Positions 4,538-23,766 of a stretch of DNA of 24,000 nt are shown here, piece by piece. Every line of letters starts with the position of its first letter. Position 1 is the first letter of the stretch. The DNA is from Thermoplasmata archaeon. Its GTDB lineage: Archaea; Thermoplasmatota; Thermoplasmata; Lutacidiplasmatales; SKW197. Made by a program: the position numbers and the translations under genes. The stretch lies in assembly GCA_026414225.1 (NCBI GenBank), contig JAOAJK010000013.1, positions 16,536 through 40,535 of the forward strand. Direction: 5' to 3'. The notes under the pieces are model-generated. The model made no database searches and was not told where the DNA came from. It was given only the letters and a program-made list of their open reading frames with translations.

Positions 4538-5695
4538 TCATTTCAACCGCACACCATCCTTCTTTATCTCTTCCACCTGCCAGTCCTCAAGAATGGAGGG
4601 GTTGAAAGAGCAGATTATCCTCGCATTGTACCTCTCTGCGCATCTCCGGAGTTCTCCAAACATCTCAGGAACCGATATTGTGGAATAGAAATAGTGTGCC
4701 AGCAACTCATCAAACCCCTCAATAAGCACCACCGACCTTTCCTCCTGGGAAACAAATTTTTCAATCAGGAATGTGAACATCCGCATTTTATCCTCGTCCA
4801 TGGGATTGATGTCACCGTTCTTTCCGAGAACAATCACCTTTGCCACCTTGTGGATTTCATCGGGAATTTGCGGGTCTGTAGTAACAAAGAGTCCACTTCC
4901 TACCTGCTGGACCATCTCAAGGAAATGTTTTCTTCCGTAATTTATATCGCTGCACCAGTAGTACCCCTTCTCAATTTTTTTACCATCCAGTAGTTTTACA
5001 GGAATCCAAGTAACCTGGTGATACTTGAGGAAGGCGTGGAGCATGAGCAGGCCAGTAATTGCAAAAGGGATCGTAGTCAGCGGGTAAATGTCTTCAACCC
5101 CAAGGAGCGGGGGCACATACCCGGTAATGGCAGCAAAGCATAGTGAAATTGCGAGGGCAATTCCTACAATTCTCGCCTGGCTCCTTCCAGCACTTGACTG
5201 CAGTTCAAACGAACTCTTTTCCAGTATCGCTATGGAAGCTATTGTACCTGCAATCATGTAGGTTCCCCAGACAAGCATTCCTGCCCCGAAGTCAGCTCCC
5301 CATCCCGGTTCATAAACTATCAACCCTTCAACCAGAAAGTCTGTACCTGCGGAGACAAATGCTATGACCCCGCTCACCCCGTAAAGAATCCCGAACACGA
5401 TATCTGGGACCTTCCTCTGAGTTACAGGGAATTTGCAGGCAAAATGCACGAAAGTAGCCGGTAAAAATGCACCAGCGATCGCAATAATCTTCAGTCCGAG
5501 AACGGCAATTTCCCTATCTGCGGGCGGTGGCCCAGCGATCCTCTCTATAAATTCGCCTAAACTCCAGAGAAAGAACAGAAAGGCATAAAGGAATGCTGAA
5601 TAGTGGATACTTTTCCGTAATCTGGCAAAGCATACAAGGAGGATGGCAAATATAAATACCGCTACCACTGGCGGCACTGAATACCATGTCAGCAT
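4538..5695 (-). CDS. 7-TM (HisKA_7TM-like) membrane protein with a C-terminal DUF835 domain
   Basis: The ORF is 4538..5707 (GTG start). The ATG at 5695 (MLTWYS...) is preceded by GGGTGTGG. I count seven hydrophobic helices in the first ~230 aa. The C-terminal ~150 aa (GYYWCSD...GLFVTTDPQIPDEI...INPMDEDKMRMFTFLIEKFVSQEERSVVLIEGFDELLAHYF...RIICSFNPSILEDWQVEEI) follow the DUF835 pattern. A paralogous domain occurs in the 14275..15345 protein. Confidence 0.7.
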   Translation of the reverse strand: MLTWYSVPPVVAVFIFAILLVCFARLRKSIHYSAFLYAFLFFLWSLGEFIERIAGPPPADREIAVLGLKIIAIAGAFLPATFVHFACKFPVTQRKVPDIVFGILYGVSGVIAFVSAGTDFLVEGLIVYEPGWGADFGAGMLVWGTYMIAGTIASIAILEKSSFELQSSAGRSQARIVGIALAISLCFAAITGYVPPLLGVEDIYPLTTIPFAITGLLMLHAFLKYHQVTWIPVKLLDGKKIEKGYYWCSDINYGRKHFLEMVQQVGSGLFVTTDPQIPDEIHKVAKVIVLGKNGDINPMDEDKMRMFTFLIEKFVSQEERSVVLIEGFDELLAHYFYSTISVPEMFGELRRCAERYNARIICSFNPSILEDWQVEEIKKDGVRLK

Positions 5696-5784
5696 CAATT
5701 TATCCACACCCTTTTAGACCTGCCTCTACTCTGCAGCACTTCCTATATTGCATCCGGATATTTGTTAGTTTCCTTTCTCCACCA

Positions 5785-14274: not shown

Positions 14275-15345
14275 ATGTCACCCGAAACTTCAGAAACCAC
14301 GAAATGTCCTTATTGCGGCAAAAACATTCCAAAGGACTCTACAATCTGCTCCTCATGTGGGAAGGAACTGTTTGAGGAGGTGTTCCTCTGTCCTAAATGC
14401 AATGAAGAAGTCGGGGAACTGGATGAAGTGTGTCCTCACTGTGGTGCTAGATTTGCCTCCTCAAAACCCACAAGTTTTCTGGAGACGGGTGGAAGTTACA
14501 TTGCAGAGGATGAAAACCTTGCCTACAGATTGTTCAAGGACCTGCTGGATGCTGGTTTTGCAGGACTGTGTCTGACTAAAAGCAATCCTAGAAAAATCAG
14601 AAAGAGGTACAATGTCAACATCGATGAGATATACTGGCTCACCTCCACCCTGACAAAGGAGAAAACCCTTGACCCCCAGCGGCTGGAGTTTGAAATGACC
14701 TACATCATTGGAGAATTCGTTAAAAATAACTCAAAGCCGGCAATCATTCTGGATGCAATCGGGCTTCTCATAACTGCAAACGGTTTTGAGAAGGTAATTG
14801 ATTTCGTGAAGGGCGTAGTTGACATGGTGTCAGTCAATAACGGTGTGTTCATTGTCCATGTTTCCCCGATTGTTCTAAGCAAGAAGGAAATTGAAACGCT
14901 TAAGCAGTATCTTGAGGTCATAGATTATAAAAAAGCTGGAATAAGCGAACCGGAGAGCATGGAGGAAGAGGAGGGCGAAGAACTTGCAGAACCAGAGGAA
15001 ACCAGAAAGGAGAGTTTTGAACTCATCATGCAGAAATTCAGGTTACTTTCAAGTGAGGCAGAAAAGGAAGAAACTACAAAAAAGAAAAAGGTGGTGGAAG
15101 AAATGTCGATAAGAGTGAAAGTGCGCGATGCTGAGACAGGTGCTTCGCTGGACATGGAACTCGAGCCAGACAATACAATAGACGAGATCATAGAAAGTGT
15201 GGGTACCTACTGGGAGAAGAACATAGGCGTGTATGTGCTCCGTAAGGGAAAGCGCATACTGCGAGGCGAAACCAAAGTGGAGGAAGCAGATATAAGAGAT
15301 GGGGACTTAATGGAGCTCATCCCTGACCCAGAAGGCGGAATTTGA
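14275..15345 (+). CDS. Double zinc ribbon + DUF835 + acidic linker + C-terminal ubiquitin-like (beta-grasp) domain ending in GG-I
   Basis: 356 aa. Residues 11-56 carry four CxxC pairs with regular x10 spacing (CPYC-x10-CSSC-x10-CPKC-x10-CPHC). Residues ~70-217 follow the DUF835 pattern (GGSYIAEDENLAYRLFKDLLDAGFAGLCLTKSNPRKIRKRY...IYWLTS...LDPQRLEFEMTYIIGEFV...PAIILDAIGLLITANGFEKVIDFVKGVVDMVSVNNGVFIVHVSPIVLSKKEIETL). An E-rich linker follows. The last 80 aa are MSIRVKVRDAETGASLDMELEPDNTIDEIIESVGTYWEKNIGVYVLRKGKRILRGETKVEEADIRDGDLMELIPDPEGGI. They show a beta-beta-alpha-beta-beta pattern and a diglycine one residue from the end, as in Ubl precursors. Confidence 0.8.
   Translation: MSPETSETTKCPYCGKNIPKDSTICSSCGKELFEEVFLCPKCNEEVGELDEVCPHCGARFASSKPTSFLETGGSYIAEDENLAYRLFKDLLDAGFAGLCLTKSNPRKIRKRYNVNIDEIYWLTSTLTKEKTLDPQRLEFEMTYIIGEFVKNNSKPAIILDAIGLLITANGFEKVIDFVKGVVDMVSVNNGVFIVHVSPIVLSKKEIETLKQYLEVIDYKKAGISEPESMEEEEGEELAEPEETRKESFELIMQKFRLLSSEAEKEETTKKKKVVEEMSIRVKVRDAETGASLDMELEPDNTIDEIIESVGTYWEKNIGVYVLRKGKRILRGETKVEEADIRDGDLMELIPDPEGGI
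15103..15342 (+). other. Ubiquitin-like beta-grasp module (80 codons) with a possible internal translation start
   Basis: An in-frame ATG at 15103 is preceded by ggtggtggaag, a Shine-Dalgarno-like sequence. The module ends GGI immediately before the TGA (15343-15345). It is located directly upstream of the E2, JAMM and E1 genes. Confidence 0.6.
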
Positions 15346-15360
15346 GAGGGGGAATCAGAT

Positions 15361-15903
15361 GTGCCGCTTCCTATCGAAGTATTGAGGCAAAGGTTGTATA
15401 ATGAAATCCTTACATGCAAAAAAGAACTGAGGCACATACTTTCGGTCTCGGATAGCAGTCTGTCCAACTTTCCGATAGAAATAGACCTCACATTTGTAAA
15501 AACGCCTGGACCGTTTCTCTGGGAAGGAAAGGTGACCACCAGGTACACGCACAAGGTAAAAATAATCATCACTGCCCAGTATCCCTATCAGAAGCCAATA
15601 GTAAGATGGCTCAGCCCGATATTCCATCCCAATATAATGCCACCGCATGAAGGTGGTTATGTCTGCACCAAGCTTTTTGATACCTGGACACCCCAGTCGA
15701 CACTCCTGATGTTTATCAAGGGACTTGAGGCCCTGCTTTCAAATCCAAACCCTGGAAACCCTCTCGGGAGCGAGGCATGCCAGAAAGCTGCGGAGTATTT
15801 TGAAAAGCATCCGTACAAACCACCAGTTATAGTAGAAAAGACAAAGACAGAGCATGCTCCGAAGATTGTTGGAGGAGCAGAAGATGGCGAGGGAAAAACC
15901 TAA
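15361..15903 (+). CDS. Ubiquitin-conjugating enzyme E2 (UBC fold)
   Basis: 180 aa. The GTG start is preceded by GAGGGGG (15346-15352). The UBC core is ITAQYPYQKPIVRWLSPIFHPNIMPPHEGGYVCTKLFDTWTPQSTLLMFIKGLEALLSNPNPGNPLGSEA. It contains the HPN triad (res 89-91), the catalytic Cys102 (tgc 15664-15666) about 11 residues after it, a W-x-P after the Cys, and the LL..PNP..PL helix. Confidence 0.85.
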   Translation: MPLPIEVLRQRLYNEILTCKKELRHILSVSDSSLSNFPIEIDLTFVKTPGPFLWEGKVTTRYTHKVKIIITAQYPYQKPIVRWLSPIFHPNIMPPHEGGYVCTKLFDTWTPQSTLLMFIKGLEALLSNPNPGNPLGSEACQKAAEYFEKHPYKPPVIVEKTKTEHAPKIVGGAEDGEGKT

Positions 15904-18508
15904 GATTGTTGGCGAAAGCAAAAAGGAGATTTCGAATAAAGAACCACCACAATACGAGTATCTAGCACCCCATGAATGGTCATCTAAAGAGGGGTTTGAA
16001 CTTTTTAAAAAGACAATAGAGTCGTCAAAAATTTTTGATGTTTACATTTCTAAAAATGCGGAAGAAAAGATTCTCCTCCATGCAATGAAGTACAAATCCC
16101 AGAACCTCGAAGTGATGGGATTCCTTCTGGGCGATGTGTACAAATACGACGGAAAGGTGTACACAGTTGTCCGGGACATTGTGACCTCAGACCTTGATGC
16201 CAGTGCCGTTCATGTGAAATTTGACAAGGAGGGTTATGAGAAACTGTTTGAACAGCTGGATGAAATTCCATTTGATTACATTCTGGTTGGCTGGTATCAC
16301 TCACATCCCGGCCACACATGTTTTCTCTCCAGCACCGACATTTCAACCCAGACCAAGATGTTTCCGCATGAATATCACTGTGCAATCGTAGTAGACCCGA
16401 TAAACGAAGAGTTTGCGGTCTTTGGTGTCAGGAACATGGATTATTACTCCCGTCCCTATGCAATTTTCTGGGAGGAATTGCAGAAACCATATGACTGCGG
16501 AAAATGGAAACCGGAAATGGGAAAAATTCAGTATCCTGTCAAAAAGAAAAAGATGCTGAAGAAGAAGGAGCACTCTGATGAGGATTCCAAGGTGTGTCCC
16601 AGATGCAAGGCAGAAGTGAGTTTTGCAGAAGCCATCTGCCCGAACTGCAAGTATGAGTTTGAGATGCCTAGCATAGAGGATTCCCTCGCTACCCTTAGCG
16701 AAAAGTACAGAGAACTGGAAAACCTGAAAAATGAGCTTGCTGCAAGGGAGGAAGCCCTCAAAACCAAAGAAAGTGACCTTTATGTCTGGGAAGAGGACCT
16801 TAAGATGCGGGAAAACAAACTCCAGGAAAACTATTCGGATATTAACAAGAAAATTGCGGAACTCACAGAATGGGAGAACTGGTTGAAGGCAGAGGAAGAG
16901 AGAATTAAACAGATTGGAATTGAGTTAAACGCAAAGGTGCAGGCGTTTGATGCAATGTCCCAGGACCTCAGGAAGCGCGAAGAAAACCTGACAGTCCAGA
17001 TGTACCAGCTCGAGATGGAACGGAATGCATTGAATGCAAAGTTTGAAGAACTGAGGCAATGGGAGGAGCGTTTAAAGGAAGCCCAGGAATACCCGCAAAA
17101 CATTGCAACCATGCCTGAGGAGATGCGGAAGAAGATAGAGGCGGATTTAAAGGAGCTGAGACAGATACGGGAGGAACTGCGGATAAAGGAGAAGGAGTTG
17201 AATTTAAAAGAAAAATGGATTCTCGATGCAATCCAATCCCTTAAAGAAGAAACAGGGGAGAAGGAAAAAGTTGAGAAATTTATAAAACTAATGGAGGAAC
17301 TGGAAAGAGAAAAGAGAGAAGTTGACACCAAGGCAACAGAGCAGGCAGCGATGGGGGCCATGCTGGCTGAGAAGGAAAAGCTATTCAAGGAGAAGGAGGA
17401 ATGGCTCAAGGCGGAGGAGGACCGCGCCCGTGTGCTTGCTGCAGAGCTGGAAGAAAAGGAAAGACAGCTCAATCAGATGCTTGCAGAAACCTCCGAAAAG
17501 AACGAAGAAATAGACCGTATGAAGATTGCACTTTCCAAGGCAATCGAGCAGACAAATGCAAAAGCCATTGAACTGAACGAAGCCAAGGAAAGATTGAAGA
17601 AGGAAGAAAACGATGTGATCCGTGTCAAGCAAGAACTGGAAACTCGCAGAGTCGCAATAGAGGATAAGGAAAAAGTGCTTTATGAGAAGGAAGAATTTAT
17701 CAGAAGCGAGGAGGAAAAACTGAAGGCAATGAACCTGAGATTGATGGAAAAAGATAGGGAGTTGCGGGAAAGAGAGGCCTTGGTTTCAGAACAGGAAAAA
17801 GTCATGGCGGAAGAGCGTGCCCGGATGGAGGAAGCGAGGAAAGAATACAATCAGCGTGTGGATAAAATCACAAGGTATGAGGCGACGCTCACCGAACGGG
17901 AGAGAACTTTTGCAGAGAAAGAGGAGTATATTGAGAGAAAAATTGTGGAGCTGGAAGGACGGGAGCGGGAGTTAAATGAGCGAGAGGAAAATGTGAAGAA
18001 GAAGGAGGAGGAGATTGCGAAAGACCTTGCTGTTATCGATGAGATGGGAAAGGAATTTGCTACCAGAAAGAAACAGATGGATGAACTTGAAGCAACGATC
18101 ACTGCGAAAAAAGAAGAGGTGGAGCAGGAAAAGAAGAATGTGGATGCCATGCTTCACGAAATAGAGCTAAAGACCCAGGCGGTTATTGAGGAAAAGAGCA
18201 ATATTGAAGCGGAAAAGGAGACCCTCAAACGGATGCGGGGAGAACTCGAAACTGCAATTGTTGATCTGGCCGGAAAAAAACTACCGCCAGATGCTCTTAA
18301 AGCTGAAATTGTGAGGGAAGTTGTGGAGAGGGTAGAGAAGGAACTCGCACCAGCAGTCAAGAAATTCCTGGAAGTAAAATCCAATGCTGAAAAGGTAATG
18401 GAGAAACTGAAGAAGCAGAAGGAAGAAATTCTCAAGGAGAAAGAGGAAGCCGAGGAAATTCTGAGAAAGCTTGAGAAAAAGGGATTTAAAAAGACCCAGG
18501 GAGGTTAA
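15884..18508 (+). CDS. JAMM/MPN+ metalloprotease (Rpn11/Bil JAB-like deconjugase/Ubl-processing enzyme) fused to a zinc ribbon and a ~600-aa coiled coil
   Basis: The ORF track starts at 15854. The ATG at 15884 has GGAGGAG 6 nt upstream and overlaps the E2 stop by 20 nt. The MPN+ motifs are Glu in NLEVMGFLLGD and the exact JAMM signature HSHPGHTCFLSSTD (HxHx7SxxD; cac tca cat at 16298-16306). The zinc ribbon is CPRC-x10-CPNC (16595-16648). Roughly from 16680 to the stop, the sequence is continuous E/K/R/L-rich heptad-like sequence. Confidence 0.85.
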   Translation: MAREKPKIVGESKKEISNKEPPQYEYLAPHEWSSKEGFELFKKTIESSKIFDVYISKNAEEKILLHAMKYKSQNLEVMGFLLGDVYKYDGKVYTVVRDIVTSDLDASAVHVKFDKEGYEKLFEQLDEIPFDYILVGWYHSHPGHTCFLSSTDISTQTKMFPHEYHCAIVVDPINEEFAVFGVRNMDYYSRPYAIFWEELQKPYDCGKWKPEMGKIQYPVKKKKMLKKKEHSDEDSKVCPRCKAEVSFAEAICPNCKYEFEMPSIEDSLATLSEKYRELENLKNELAAREEALKTKESDLYVWEEDLKMRENKLQENYSDINKKIAELTEWENWLKAEEERIKQIGIELNAKVQAFDAMSQDLRKREENLTVQMYQLEMERNALNAKFEELRQWEERLKEAQEYPQNIATMPEEMRKKIEADLKELRQIREELRIKEKELNLKEKWILDAIQSLKEETGEKEKVEKFIKLMEELEREKREVDTKATEQAAMGAMLAEKEKLFKEKEEWLKAEEDRARVLAAELEEKERQLNQMLAETSEKNEEIDRMKIALSKAIEQTNAKAIELNEAKERLKKEENDVIRVKQELETRRVAIEDKEKVLYEKEEFIRSEEEKLKAMNLRLMEKDRELREREALVSEQEKVMAEERARMEEARKEYNQRVDKITRYEATLTERERTFAEKEEYIERKIVELEGRERELNEREENVKKKEEEIAKDLAVIDEMGKEFATRKKQMDELEATITAKKEEVEQEKKNVDAMLHEIELKTQAVIEEKSNIEAEKETLKRMRGELETAIVDLAGKKLPPDALKAEIVREVVERVEKELAPAVKKFLEVKSNAEKVMEKLKKQKEEILKEKEEAEEILRKLEKKGFKKTQGG

Positions 18509-18509
18509 G

Positions 18510-19343
18510 ATGACAGCCAATAAGGTATTGAAGGTGGGAATGCATGACGAGGACATGTTTGATAGAGAAAAGAGAATTCCATGGATCAAATTCAATTTAC
18601 TCCAGAAAAGTAAGGTGCTTGTGGTGGGTGCAGGTGCCCTTGGCAATGAGGTGGGGAAAAACCTGGTTCTCTCAGGTTTCAAGAATATCTCAATAGTGGA
18701 CATGGATAAAATTGTGAAATCCAATTTAAGCAGATGTGCTCTTTTCCGAATTGAAGATGCAGAGAAAGGGCTGCTCAAGGCAGAAGTCCTTGCCAGAGAG
18801 CTGAAAAAACTGGATAAAACCGTGAGGGTTTCCTGGTACTCCAAACCAATTCAGGAACTCCCAGAGGATTTTCTCAAGGAGTTTGACATTATCTTCGGAT
18901 GCCTGGACAACATCATGGCGAGGTTATACATCAACTCCCACGCATACTATTACGGAATTCCCCTGGTAGATGGAGGCACACTCGGTACATCTGGAAAGGT
19001 TCAGGTGGTACTGCCTCCCAGAACCGCATGTATAGAATGCGGAATGAACAAAACCCATTTCAAAAATCTGGAGCAAATCTTTTCTTGCTCGGGAAGGGAG
19101 GATGTGACAATCTACTCTCCGAAGCTGCCAGCGGAAATTACTACTACTGCTGTGATTTCAGCGCTCCAGGTACTCTCAGGAATAAAGATAATCTCAAAAC
19201 AGTATGACTCCCTCCCCTACAACCTGATTTACTATGATGGATACCGGAATGTGTTTGAGGTCCTTGAAGTTCCCCTGAATAGTCACTGTCCCAACCACAT
19301 AACCCAGCCAACAAAACCAAAGAAGGAGAAAAAGAGGAAATAA
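18510..19343 (+). CDS. E1-like Ubl-activating enzyme (ThiF/MoeB/UBA family adenylation domain)
   Basis: The ORF track starts at 18471. The ATG at 18510 sits 1 nt after the JAMM gene stop and is preceded by GGGAGG (18499-18504). It has the Rossmann ATP loop VLVVGAGALGNEVGKNL, the IVDMDKIVKSNLSRCALF block (D-x-D...NL-x-R), FGCLDNIMARLYIN, DGGTLGTSGKVQVV, and the zinc-site pairs CIEC ... CPNH. Confidence 0.85.
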   Translation: MTANKVLKVGMHDEDMFDREKRIPWIKFNLLQKSKVLVVGAGALGNEVGKNLVLSGFKNISIVDMDKIVKSNLSRCALFRIEDAEKGLLKAEVLARELKKLDKTVRVSWYSKPIQELPEDFLKEFDIIFGCLDNIMARLYINSHAYYYGIPLVDGGTLGTSGKVQVVLPPRTACIECGMNKTHFKNLEQIFSCSGREDVTIYSPKLPAEITTTAVISALQVLSGIKIISKQYDSLPYNLIYYDGYRNVFEVLEVPLNSHCPNHITQPTKPKKEKKRK

Positions 19344-21100: not shown

Positions 21101-21195
21101 TTAATCACCACTGAGAGGATTACTTATGGGTATTTATAACTTTCTTGGATTGACTTCAGAAAGGAATTAATAGTTTTCGGGATTATCATTGTTTG

Positions 21196-23766
21196 ATGAG
21201 TGTATCCCTTAATCTACCGCCAGCATTCGTGGACAGAAAGAGAGAAATATCTCACCTGGATAAATTCGTAGAGAATGTATTTAGTGGTGCGGGGAGTGTG
21301 CTGCTGATTCAAGGAGAGGGAGGTGTGGGAAAAACCCGATTGCTGGAAGAAGTGAAAAGGATGGCCGGGGAAAAAGGGTTTTATGTTTTACCCTCCAAGT
21401 GTTTACCTGGCACCACCTCCCCCCTCTCCCCTTTCTACGAGGCCCTCAAATTTGTAAACCTGGAACACCTTCTTGTAGAAAGCTCCCCGAATTTGGATGC
21501 CCTTTATGTTGTGAACAAGGGGGGCATAATCCTCTCGAAATACGAGAAGACAGTGAAGAACATAGACCCCGACATCTTTCTTGGAATGGTCACAGCGGTG
21601 GAGAACTTCATAAGGGATTCGATGACCCAGATTGCCGGAAAAGAGCAGGTCGAAATTGAAGAAAAGCTGGGAGTGATGAGGCACGGAGAATTCACAATCG
21701 TGAACATGCCTGGCAAAAACATAAACCTGGTTGCCCTTGTTGAGGGCGTTGAAAACGAGTACCTGCTGGATGACATGGGCCGCCTGATTGAGAGAATAGA
21801 AGCAATCTCGGATGCCTCCGAGGGGATGCACGCTGAACTGGAAGAAATGCTCAGGGCACTCGTGGAATCTGATAAGTATACGCGGATTGCTCTGGAAACG
21901 GTGGACAGAAGGACTGGCATTTTTGAGAATGTGCTCCTAGGAATCAAGAGAATCTCCTCGAGAAAACCAGTCCTGCTGGTTATCGATGACCTGCAGTGGG
22001 CGGACAGTTCATCGCTTTCCCTGCTCAATTATATAGGGCGAGACATTGCTGCAGAAAGGGTGGGTATAATATGTGCTGCAAGGTCAGATGAAATTCCAAC
22101 GGCTAGCATGCTCCCAGACATGATAGATGCAATGAGAACGGAGAACATATTGGAACTGCTCAATCTCGCGCCACTGGATAGGGGGGGTGTGGAGGAGTTG
22201 ATAGAACGTGTGCTGGGCGGGCATGTGGACGCTGGCTTCAAGGAAAGGGTCTACATCGAAGCTGAGGGCAATCCCCTATTTGTCATCGAACTTTTGAAGT
22301 ATCTTACGGATAAAGGGTTGCTCCGCAGAGAGGCGGAACTCTGGGTCTATGAGAAGGAAGAAATAAGGATACCCGAGAGAATTTATGAAATAATAAAGGA
22401 AAAAATCACCAGGTTGAATGCGGACGAGTTTGAGGTGCTTGAGACCGCTAGCGTGCTAGGAACCGAGTTTATAACTTCGTTGCTGGAAAAAATGGTGGAT
22501 ATGGACAGGATAAAACTGCTTAGGGCCCTCTCAAGAATCGAAAAAATTCACGGGTTGATAAAACAGGAAGGGGGCAAATACAGATTCGATCCCACCAAAA
22601 TCCGGGATGTGATATACGATGAGATGGGGTCGGAACTCAGGCAAGCCCTGCACGAAATGGTGGGGAAAATCCTGGAGGAGGAGTACAAAAAAGGAGACGA
22701 GGAAAAGATTCTTGGAGCCATTTATCACTACAGAAAAGCCGGATGTCTGGATAAATTAAAGGACTACGGACTCGTGGTTGCGGACAAACTCGCCGGGAGA
22801 TTTGCATATGATGAAGCTGTAGAGGTTTTAAAGGCACTTTATAATTCCCTTAACAGACACGATTTAAAGGAAAAAGAGATAGCAATGGCTGCCCTTGAAA
22901 AGATGATTGAAGTTTTGCTCTCGTCTGGACTTTATGAGGATGCAATGAAAGCGCTGGAGGAAAAAATTTCCCAGTCGGGAGATGGAGATGATAAAGCAGT
23001 CCAGACCCATGTAACACGTTCTGAGATATACTTAAAAATGGGTGAGCATGAAAAGGCGATGGAGAGCATAAACAGGGCGTTTGAATTGCTGGCTCGGACC
23101 CGTGGGACTTGCGCGCCTGAAATCGCAAGGATGCTCAGCATCAAGGGGTACATTCACGAGAGGGCAGGCAATTACCAGAACGCAATTGAATGTCAGGAGA
23201 AAGCCCTGGAGTTGTTCAGTAAGGAGAGAAAAGAAAAGGAGATTGCAACCTGCTATACCAGAATCGGTTCTACCCATTACTATCTGGGGAACTACGACGA
23301 GTGCATTGCGTGTTTAAGAATCGCTGAGGAAATTTTTGCCAGAAACAATGACAAGTATGGACTCTCCCAGGTGTATAACAATCTAGGAATGGTATACTAT
23401 GAACTGGAGGATTTCAGGAATGCAGAACGGTATCTCGAGAAAACTGTAGAACTGAAGGAAACGGTTCATGATATGGCAGGAATTGCAATTGCAAAAAACA
23501 ACCTTGGAAATGTTCATTTCGAAATGGGAAACCTGGAGAAGGCAATAGGGCTCTACATCGAAGCCAGGCGCCTCTGCAAGAAAACTGGAGATAAATGGAT
23601 GTTTGTTTACAACCAGATAGACCTTGCGGAGGCGTTTGCTGAAAAAGGAGACGAGATAAAATTTCGGTCAGCTATCGAGGAAGCCCTGAATGTGGCTTCA
23701 CAAATTGGGATGGAAAAAGAGGTAGTAGAGGCAAAAGAAGAAATGGAAAAAAGGTTCAGGCGTTGA
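21196..23766 (+). CDS. STAND-type AAA_16 P-loop ATPase with C-terminal TPR array and a ~100-aa insertion in the NTPase domain
   Basis: TTG at 21193, ATG at 21196. Walker A is LLIQGEGGVGKTRLLEE and Walker B is PVLLVIDDLQWADSSSLSLL. A helical arm follows, then at least 6 TPR-like repeats (e.g. IATCYTRIGSTHYYLGNYDECIACLRIAEEIF, LSQVYNNLGMVYYELEDFRNAERYLEKTVEL, IAKNNLGNVHFEMGNLEKAIGLYIEARRL). About 225 aa separate Walker A from Walker B, noticeably more than I expect for AAA_16. Confidence 0.8.
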   Translation: MSVSLNLPPAFVDRKREISHLDKFVENVFSGAGSVLLIQGEGGVGKTRLLEEVKRMAGEKGFYVLPSKCLPGTTSPLSPFYEALKFVNLEHLLVESSPNLDALYVVNKGGIILSKYEKTVKNIDPDIFLGMVTAVENFIRDSMTQIAGKEQVEIEEKLGVMRHGEFTIVNMPGKNINLVALVEGVENEYLLDDMGRLIERIEAISDASEGMHAELEEMLRALVESDKYTRIALETVDRRTGIFENVLLGIKRISSRKPVLLVIDDLQWADSSSLSLLNYIGRDIAAERVGIICAARSDEIPTASMLPDMIDAMRTENILELLNLAPLDRGGVEELIERVLGGHVDAGFKERVYIEAEGNPLFVIELLKYLTDKGLLRREAELWVYEKEEIRIPERIYEIIKEKITRLNADEFEVLETASVLGTEFITSLLEKMVDMDRIKLLRALSRIEKIHGLIKQEGGKYRFDPTKIRDVIYDEMGSELRQALHEMVGKILEEEYKKGDEEKILGAIYHYRKAGCLDKLKDYGLVVADKLAGRFAYDEAVEVLKALYNSLNRHDLKEKEIAMAALEKMIEVLLSSGLYEDAMKALEEKISQSGDGDDKAVQTHVTRSEIYLKMGEHEKAMESINRAFELLARTRGTCAPEIARMLSIKGYIHERAGNYQNAIECQEKALELFSKERKEKEIATCYTRIGSTHYYLGNYDECIACLRIAEEIFARNNDKYGLSQVYNNLGMVYYELEDFRNAERYLEKTVELKETVHDMAGIAIAKNNLGNVHFEMGNLEKAIGLYIEARRLCKKTGDKWMFVYNQIDLAEAFAEKGDEIKFRSAIEEALNVASQIGMEKEVVEAKEEMEKRFRR

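Follow-up and report, generated by a model that had tools for sequence, protein, structure and literature searches.

An Rpn11-type protease with a putative zinc ribbon and a long coiled-coil rod in an archaeal ubiquitin-type operon

To learn how eukaryotic ubiquitin signaling arose, researchers use archaeal ubiquitin-type systems as models. A central step in this origin is the building of a free Rpn11-like protease into larger assemblies through added C-terminal helices. The Rpn11-like enzyme of Candidatus Caldiarchaeum subterraneum (CsRpn11) trims the ubiquitin precursor and also deconjugates (PMC5654768, PMC6043591), and eukaryotic Rpn11 anchors in the proteasome lid via extra C-terminal helices (PMC6043591). 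Here we analyze a gene for an enzyme of this kind from a 1.9-Mb Thermoplasmata metagenome-assembled genome. It lies in a stretch of 24,000 nucleotides (assembly GCA_026414225.1, contig JAOAJK010000013.1, positions 16,536 to 40,535 of the forward strand), which we call the window; coordinates below are window positions unless another contig is named. Behind its catalytic domain, the protein has a putative zinc ribbon and then about 600 residues of heptad coiled coil, which we call the rod.

In the Caldiarchaeum/Asgard type of ubiquitin operon, a ubiquitin-like protein (Ubl) ending in Gly-Gly, a ThiF-type E1, a UQ_con-type E2, and an Rpn11-like gene stand together. By Pfam, these four are also together in the window. 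The protein with JAMM domain, ribbon, and rod is a rare, conserved, and uncharacterized form of an enzyme that is already known, and its operon is likewise of a known type.

The catalytic domain

The open frame at 15854-18508 (+ strand) is uninterrupted, and the likely gene within it is 15884-18508, which encodes 874 amino acids (aa). ATG 15884 is the likely start because orthologues begin with MAREKP or MAKEKP and because GGAGG lies upstream. The orthologues in genomes G112 and G236 have the same start and are 874-876 aa long (open frames of 879-881). The gene boundaries in the initial annotation of this DNA agree with this start. The gene and the parts of its catalytic domain are:

15884..18508, + strand: gene for the JAMM-zinc ribbon-coiled coil protein, 874 aa (from the open reading frame, or ORF, its translation, and the orthologues)
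15914..16498, + strand: MPN+ (JAMM) catalytic domain of the Rpn11/CSN5 type, residues ~11-205, with a conserved extension at its N terminus (from Pfam, PDB search, AlphaFold2, and Foldseek)
16109-16111, + strand: codon for the catalytic Glu76 (from the alignment to yeast Rpn11)
16298..16339, + strand: zinc-binding catalytic motif HSHPGHTCFLSSTD, with H139, H141, S149, and D152 (from the alignment to yeast Rpn11)

The protein matches Pfam's JAB family (PF01398; E = 3.8e-14, 52.9 bits, cut-off 22.5), and its score for Prok-JAB is slightly under that family's cut-off. E76, H139, H141, S149, and D152 line up with the catalytic residues of yeast Rpn11, with the motif E...HxHx7Sx2D present, so the active site is intact, as had been claimed. 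All five residues are invariant in an alignment of 63 members of the family. When we searched the sequences of solved structures in PDB, the best relatives were Rpn11 (E = 7e-14), the Rpn11-like protein of Caldiarchaeum, and CSN5.

The predicted structure agrees. With this alignment of the family as input, AlphaFold2 gave a predicted local distance difference test (pLDDT) above 90 over most of residues 11-210, with lower confidence at residues 101-130, which is the expected site of the flexible Ins-1 loop. Foldseek matched the modeled domain to CSN5, Rpn11, and CsRpn11 with probability 1.00. For Rpn11 (5u4p_B), the template-modeling (TM) score was 0.73, with a root-mean-square deviation of 2.8 Å over 152 columns and 33% identity. 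For CsRpn11 (best for 6fjv), the TM score was 0.75-0.77, with 31-32% identity. No Bil or CBASS JAB structure was within the top 50 Foldseek matches.

The initial annotation had described the enzyme as being of an Rpn11/BilC type, and only the first half of this label should be kept. The JAMM domain belongs to the eukaryote-like class of Rpn11, CSN5, and CsRpn11, and not to the BilC class. In structure it comes closest to Rpn11 and CsRpn11, and the E2 and the Ubl of its operon have no PADLOC match.

We also note that the N-terminal extension (15884-16030, residues 1-50) is conserved across the family, with the pattern K-I-V-G-E-x-K-K-E-I...E-P-P...P-H-x-W. P6, P21, P22, H30, and W32 are nearly invariant, and residues 11-50 have a pLDDT of 85-96. 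This extension lies outside the minimal MPN core. The same genome encodes a separate Prok-JAB protein of 156 aa (G000:C6:6586-6891, + strand), which is probably a SAMP-type JAMM protein that coexists with the Rpn11-like enzyme.

The basic stretch, the zinc ribbon, and the rod

Beyond the catalytic domain, the protein consists of the following:

16517..16570, + strand: basic stretch MGKIQYPVKKKKMLKKKE, residues 212-229 (matches the basic C-terminal tail of short homologues)
16595..16648, + strand: putative zinc ribbon CPRC-x10-CPNC, C238-C255, with C238, C241, C252, and C255 (from the sequence and its invariance in the genus)
16670..18481, + strand: heptad coiled-coil rod, residues 263-866, ~604 residues (from periodicity statistics, AlphaFold2, and conservation)
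17084..17122, + strand: proline-containing break QEYPQNIATMPEE that separates the first long helix from the second, residues 401-413 (from AlphaFold2; conserved in three species)
18482..18508, + strand: short basic tail at the C terminus, KGFKKTQGG, plus the stop codon (from the sequence; the tail is kept within the genus)

In 119 short homologues, the protein ends with a tail of ~19 aa whose mean net charge is +5.9. The rod protein retains this ancestral basic tail as its basic stretch, and the ribbon and the rod are appended behind it. We also considered a link between the KGFKK at the end of the rod protein and "KFKK" tails of the short forms. We dropped this specific motif because a basic-flanked aromatic residue is present in just 4 of the 119 short forms, and kept the general basic tail.

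The two CxxC knuckles of the ribbon that had been annotated behind the JAMM domain are there, and the four cysteines are invariant across three congeners. Matches to Pfam's zinc-ribbon families are weak and under their cut-offs (UPF0547, E = 2.9e-4; DZR, E = 5e-3). AlphaFold2 predicts short strands at the ribbon with modest pLDDT (53-72). The ribbon is missing from the long forms of another family, f3 (see below).

The rod is a canonical heptad coiled coil, and both disorder and a single alpha-helix are excluded. Residues 263-874 are 23% glutamate, 14% lysine, and 10% leucine, with 5 prolines and 10 glycines. The contrast between the a/d and other heptad positions has z = 13 relative to shuffles, and the windowed power at a period of 3.5 residues has z = 15. 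Core hydrophobic residues make up 27% of the sequence, which is near the 2/7 that a/d positions would give, and they are never more than 9 residues apart. The Viterbi register has 8 breaks in 612 residues, with an unbroken run from 263 to 399 and with a/d occupancies of 0.5-0.88. AlphaFold2, whether from the single sequence or with an alignment, predicts that residues 264 to 866-872 are helical, as 4-6 long helices with breaks near 402-411, 457, 536-539, 685-694, and 797-801. A region this rich in glutamate, lysine, and arginine (48% charged residues in the rod) might instead be a single alpha-helix that acts as a spacer, or low-complexity disorder, and pairs of opposite charge at i, i+4 are indeed enriched (z = 5.6). 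We give this almost no credence because the heptad periodicity is strong, core hydrophobics are at 27% with gaps of at most 9 residues, and a/d occupancy is 0.5-0.88. The initial annotation's heptad coiled coil of ~600 residues is therefore upheld, by the periodicity and by the predicted helices, and low-complexity disorder is ruled out.

The arrangement of these helices is another matter. From the residue count, 604 residues at full extension would span ~90 nm, but the helix breaks permit a folded-back form of ~20-35 nm. The earlier description of a rod tens of nm long holds only if the rod is fully extended. If the helices fold back on each other as intramolecular antiparallel hairpins or bundles, then this part of the protein would be a compact interaction platform of ~20-35 nm and not a 90-nm rod, much as Rpn11 or BRCC36 joins its complexes by way of a C-terminal helical bundle. 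The predicted helices have suitable lengths for this (138 and 124 residues around the conserved proline loop at 402-411; 145 as compared to 102+71), pLDDT peaks beside that loop, and the weak best fold match is a coiled-coil chain of Rad50. However, AlphaFold2 modeling of a monomer is biased toward folding long helices back, the predicted template-modeling score (pTM) is just 0.27-0.37, the fold matches are non-significant (E above 0.5), and the register breaks of one helix are not mirrored in its would-be partner. We consider a folded-back platform unlikely, but it is the alternative that we take most seriously.

A search of known folds with the single-sequence model gave only generic coiled-coil matches, none significant (E above 0.5). 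We also considered an antiparallel arm of the SMC/Rad50 type, in which the coiled coil links the N- and C-terminal halves of a globular head. The Rad50 matches are among these non-significant ones, and with only 8 residues behind its last helix, the protein lacks a globular domain at the C terminus.

The initial annotation had also pointed to recurring aromatic motifs in the rod and had viewed them as module boundaries. We identified these copies by tests of enrichment and of self-matching:

16874..16885, + strand: motif copy 1, ENWL, residues 331-334
17396-17407, + strand: motif copy, EEWL
17690-17701, + strand: motif copy, EEFI
17921-17932, + strand: motif copy, EEYI

The pattern E[EN][WFY][LI] occurs four times, as compared to 0.3 times expected by chance, although its P value is optimistic as the motif was defined after the sequence was seen. 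The spacings are irregular (174, 98, and 77 residues). The segments near residues 331, 505, and 603 resemble each other beyond register-preserving shuffles: the best self-matches are 503 with 601 and 331 with 505, and ~1% of 200 shuffles reached the top match and none reached the top five. The repetition is therefore real, whether as some internal duplication or as a functional motif that recurs. These two or three related segments are visible only by an ungapped window scan against such shuffles; self-BLAST of the rod with composition correction gave zero off-diagonal repeats. The recurrence stands, but the motif is not a module boundary, because the copies are off the helix breaks and inside continuous predicted helices. 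In three of the four copies, the aromatic residue is at position g and the leucine or isoleucine is at position a.

The rod might also be a filament-forming element like that of intermediate filaments and other proteins rich in coiled coil, and the rod protein would then be a cytoskeletal or cortical scaffold that is decorated with JAMM heads. It has the layout of a head, a rod, and a short tail, the long heptad rod has a few stutter-like breaks, and basic tails flank the rod on either side. But we found no paralogue of the rod in its own genome (there was one weak match of 115 residues), and we detected no homologue of the rod outside the genus in a word-seeded search of 5.8 billion proteins, in which 8000 candidates were scored. 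Also, the gene is in an operon and is translationally coupled to the E2 and the E1 (see below), and nothing indicates polymerization. We consider a filament very improbable.

The operon and its distribution

The other three genes of the operon are:

14275..15345, + strand: ZnR-ZnR-DUF835-Ubl, in which two zinc ribbons (ZnR) and DUF835 precede a C-terminal Ubl domain that ends with PDPEGG-I (from Pfam)
15361..15903, + strand: eukaryote-type E2, UQ_con (from Pfam; E = 8e-14)
18510..19343, + strand: ThiF-type E1 (from Pfam; E = 8e-51; the orthologue is 277 aa long)

The order is ZnR-DUF835-Ubl, E2, JAMM-rod, and E1, and the genes are tightly packed. The 3' end of the E2 gene overlaps the start of the JAMM-rod gene by 20 nt, and 2 nt separate the JAMM-rod stop codon from the E1's ATG at 18510. 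The JAMM-rod gene is thus a member of the operon and is translationally coupled to the E2 and the E1. Its last two codons, GGAGGT (18500-18505), encode Gly-Gly and are also the Shine-Dalgarno sequence for the E1. We rejected the idea that the terminal Gly-Gly mimics the tail of a Ubl: its conservation needs no such explanation, because these codons form the E1's ribosome-binding site, and the proteins from f3 end differently.

None of the four genes has a Pfam RING match that would suggest an E3, and since the operon is contiguous from 14275 to 19343, there is no space for a further gene. A search of the whole genome for zf-RING_2 gave only sub-threshold matches, in an unrelated ORF of 1132 aa on another contig. 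These two neighboring matches (G000:C13:21667-21966, - strand) are the only RING-like signals that we found in the genome. As for DUF835, it is strongly expanded in this 1.9-Mb genome, with 33 domain matches, several of them in tandem within a single ORF, and there is a weak match at 4538-5707 (- strand) in the window as well. In the library of papers that we could search, we found none that joins DUF835 with ubiquitin, or Thermoplasmatota with ubiquitin and Rpn11.

The short form of the enzyme is widespread. With the N-terminal 262 residues of the protein as the query, we sampled 301 Thermoplasmata genomes and found a homologue in 105, with near-complete presence in many families (38/39, 7/7, and 5/5). 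Most of the open frames are 207-240 aa long, and the usual protein is 208-225 aa. A search of 5.8 billion proteins yielded 314 clusters of this family, and among the 120 that were listed, almost all were 208-225 aa. At nine loci from outside the window's taxonomic order, the genes are E1, free Ubl (79-82 aa), E2, and JAMM, except that one of the nine contigs gave no separate Ubl ORF. The free Ubl orthologues end with ELIPDPEGG and 0-2 more residues. In eight loci with the standard cassette, no free coiled-coil gene adjoins it.

Within the window's order (186 genomes), each of the six genomes in the small families f1 and f3 has the gene, and none of the 180 genomes of f2 does. Family f1 comprises four genomes (the window's and three congeners), and f3 comprises two. 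Five of the six open frames are long (636-890 aa), and the sixth (G302, 538 aa) is apparently cut short. We read four loci (the window, G112, G236, and G200): in each, two zinc ribbons and DUF835 precede the Ubl in one fusion protein, and the E1 is downstream of the JAMM gene.

The length survey confirms that a protein of this size is atypical for the family. Among the 150 nearest representative clusters (from 1.84 billion proteins), only three lineages have at least 100 coiled-coil-like residues: the window's genus, f3, and P0131, whose architecture is unrelated. Long coiled-coil JAMM fusions are therefore not common, the rod form having turned up only in f1 and f3, and our literature searches for such fusions found nothing relevant.

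The proteins of f3 (629-636 aa) have the coiled coil but not the zinc ribbon. Homology of the two extensions is unproven because the rods of f3 and of the window cannot be aligned colinearly, and the f3 rod is ~200 residues shorter. In a maximum-likelihood tree of the catalytic domains, all of the long forms fall on the same side of a moderately supported branch (71/90), so the tree would allow a single origin of the long forms. We also note that the long forms of f3 share a basic C-terminal end, ...KTVWKKAAK (L024:10400-10484 and the C terminus of P0013), and that their rods are just 31% identical.

Within the genus, the rod is well conserved. Across three species, it is free of indels over 612 residues at 73-87% identity (87% for G112 and 73% for G236), and the first rod helix is as strongly conserved as the catalytic domain. 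Nonsynonymous divergence (dN) in the rod is 0.07-0.18 and synonymous sites are saturated, so the rod is under strong purifying selection.

Many other relatives of this enzyme are tethered to membranes. P0012, P0004, P0007, and P0046 have one or two JAMM domains, an acidic or proline-rich linker, and a C-terminal transmembrane hairpin. In P0006, P0008, P0041, and others, which are proteins of 1000-2000 aa with large N-terminal regions, the JAMM domain is C-terminal and lies behind a transmembrane segment.

The arrangement of the window's operon raises the question of antiviral defense. Its order, Ubl-E2-JAB-E1, equals that of bilABCD, and if the cassette were an antiviral system like Bil, then the rod might position the JAMM domain on viral assemblies such as virions. 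A gene for a STAND NTPase (AAA_16+TPR; 21193-23766, + strand) lies two genes downstream of the operon, and one relative, P0005 (912 aa), fuses this JAMM domain to an AAA_16+TPR STAND NTPase. That link is weak because the window's STAND protein is just 20% identical to the STAND part of P0005. More broadly, the class ancestrally has the order E1-Ubl-E2-JAMM, the cassette is in nearly all members of many families (the 38/39, 7/7, and 5/5 mentioned above), and housekeeping genes surround it in the relatives that we inspected. The distribution of the cassette looks vertical. The E2 is also of the eukaryotic UQ_con type, and neither it nor the Ubl has a PADLOC match. We think an antiviral role is very improbable.

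Proposed role and comparison with known systems

We propose that, in a ubiquitin-type system that is archaeal but eukaryote-like, the protein is the protease for both processing and deconjugation, extended by a self-associating rod that acts as a spacer or docking arm. We view this proposal as a whole as evenly balanced between right and wrong. We infer the protein's catalytic activity, its oligomeric state and orientation, and the role of the rod as follows. By analogy with CsRpn11, an active Rpn11-like JAMM enzyme would remove the residue after the Gly-Gly of the Ubl and would cleave isopeptide bonds between Ubl and lysine. The Ubl would need this trimming because it ends with GG-I. In one small lineage of Thermoplasmata, the ~215-aa enzyme would have been lengthened behind its ancestral basic tail by a heptad coiled coil, and in this genus by a zinc ribbon as well. 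The rod may self-associate, most simply as a parallel, in-register homodimer, and the dimer would then be an elongated, two-headed deconjugase. The rod would then serve as a spacer or docking arm and set a defined distance between the protease and whatever is bound by the rod's far end or by its surface. The rod is probably related to the change in the modifier, from a free Ubl of 79 aa to a 40-kDa ZnR-DUF835-Ubl fusion.

In a parallel homodimer, irregular register breaks pair automatically. The Viterbi register also fits this arrangement better than a hairpin: it is unbroken in helix 264-401, and the would-be hairpin partner (412-535) has three breaks. Tethering of the JAMM domain recurs in this clade, because many relatives carry C-terminal transmembrane hairpins or follow transmembrane segments. 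The scaffold, ruler, or tether function that the initial annotation had suggested may be right, but its only support is circumstantial: the rod occurs together with the DUF835-Ubl fusion, and relatives have membrane anchors.

Several observations weigh against our proposal. A parallel dimer is not specifically indicated because g-e' charge pairs are not enriched (16 attractive and 12 repulsive). The pTM of the monomer models is low (0.27-0.37), and the weak best fold match of the single-sequence model is the Rad50 coiled-coil chain 6zff_B (E = 0.58), so the rod may fold back. The co-occurrence of the rod with the DUF835-Ubl fusion may be one evolutionary event, which makes it effectively n = 1. 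And the exact length of the rod is not conserved across lineages, as the f3 rod is ~200 residues shorter, ribbonless, and non-colinear.

A more specific form of our proposal is that the rod is a tether that replaces the membrane anchors of the sister JAMM proteins. It would hold the catalytic head at a fixed distance of up to ~90 nm from an anchoring surface, or from a multimeric hub of DUF835-Ubl, so that deconjugation would be spatially gated. We consider this rather doubtful. If the rod tethers or oligomerizes the protease, then this operon would be a simple and tractable four-gene case of spatially controlled deconjugation. If it does neither, then the protein remains an unusual, lineage-specific architecture. 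This lineage has an independent and extreme C-terminal elaboration of the same enzyme that was built into assemblies in eukaryotes, coupled to the change from a free Ubl to a 40-kDa fusion.

Among known proteins, the rod protein is like the short-form JAMM proteins of Thermoplasmata (annotated as "proteasome lid subunit RPN8/RPN11" or "Mov34/MPN/PAD-1"), which belong to the same orthologous family. They are 40-55% identical to it over residues 1-205 and share its conserved N-terminal extension and its basic tail. Unlike the rod protein, the short forms end after that tail, and their E1 is upstream. As in BilABCD, in which BilC pre-processes its Ubl, a JAB protease is encoded in an operon of Ubl, E2, JAB, and E1. 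Unlike BilC and the Cap3 JABs of CBASS, this JAMM domain matches PADLOC's JAB models only weakly (E = 5e-7). Also unlike BilABCD, the operon has a UQ_con E2 of eukaryotic type, PADLOC matches neither this E2 nor the Ubl, and the cassette is family-wide and does not resemble a defense island.

Like CsRpn11 (PDB 6FJU/6FJV/6FNN), the rod protein is an archaeal soluble MPN+ enzyme that is encoded beside ubiquitin, E1, and E2, and it has the same catalytic motif and a Ubl precursor with residues after the Gly-Gly. Unlike the rod protein, CsRpn11 is ~200 aa, is monomeric in solution, and has neither a zinc ribbon nor a coiled coil (PMC6043591, PMC5654768). The operon of CsRpn11 also includes small RING E3s, and none was seen in the window's cassette.

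Eukaryotic Rpn11/PSMD14 and CSN5 have C-terminal helices of tens of residues, which lie in a multi-subunit helical bundle with an MPN- partner. The rod protein has a ~600-residue heptad rod instead, and a gene for an MPN- partner is absent. But in these eukaryotic enzymes, as in the rod protein, C-terminal helices were added behind the MPN domain, and theirs dock into a larger assembly. If the rod is indeed a tether, then it would be a prokaryotic, single-polypeptide counterpart of the anchoring of Rpn11 in the proteasome lid.

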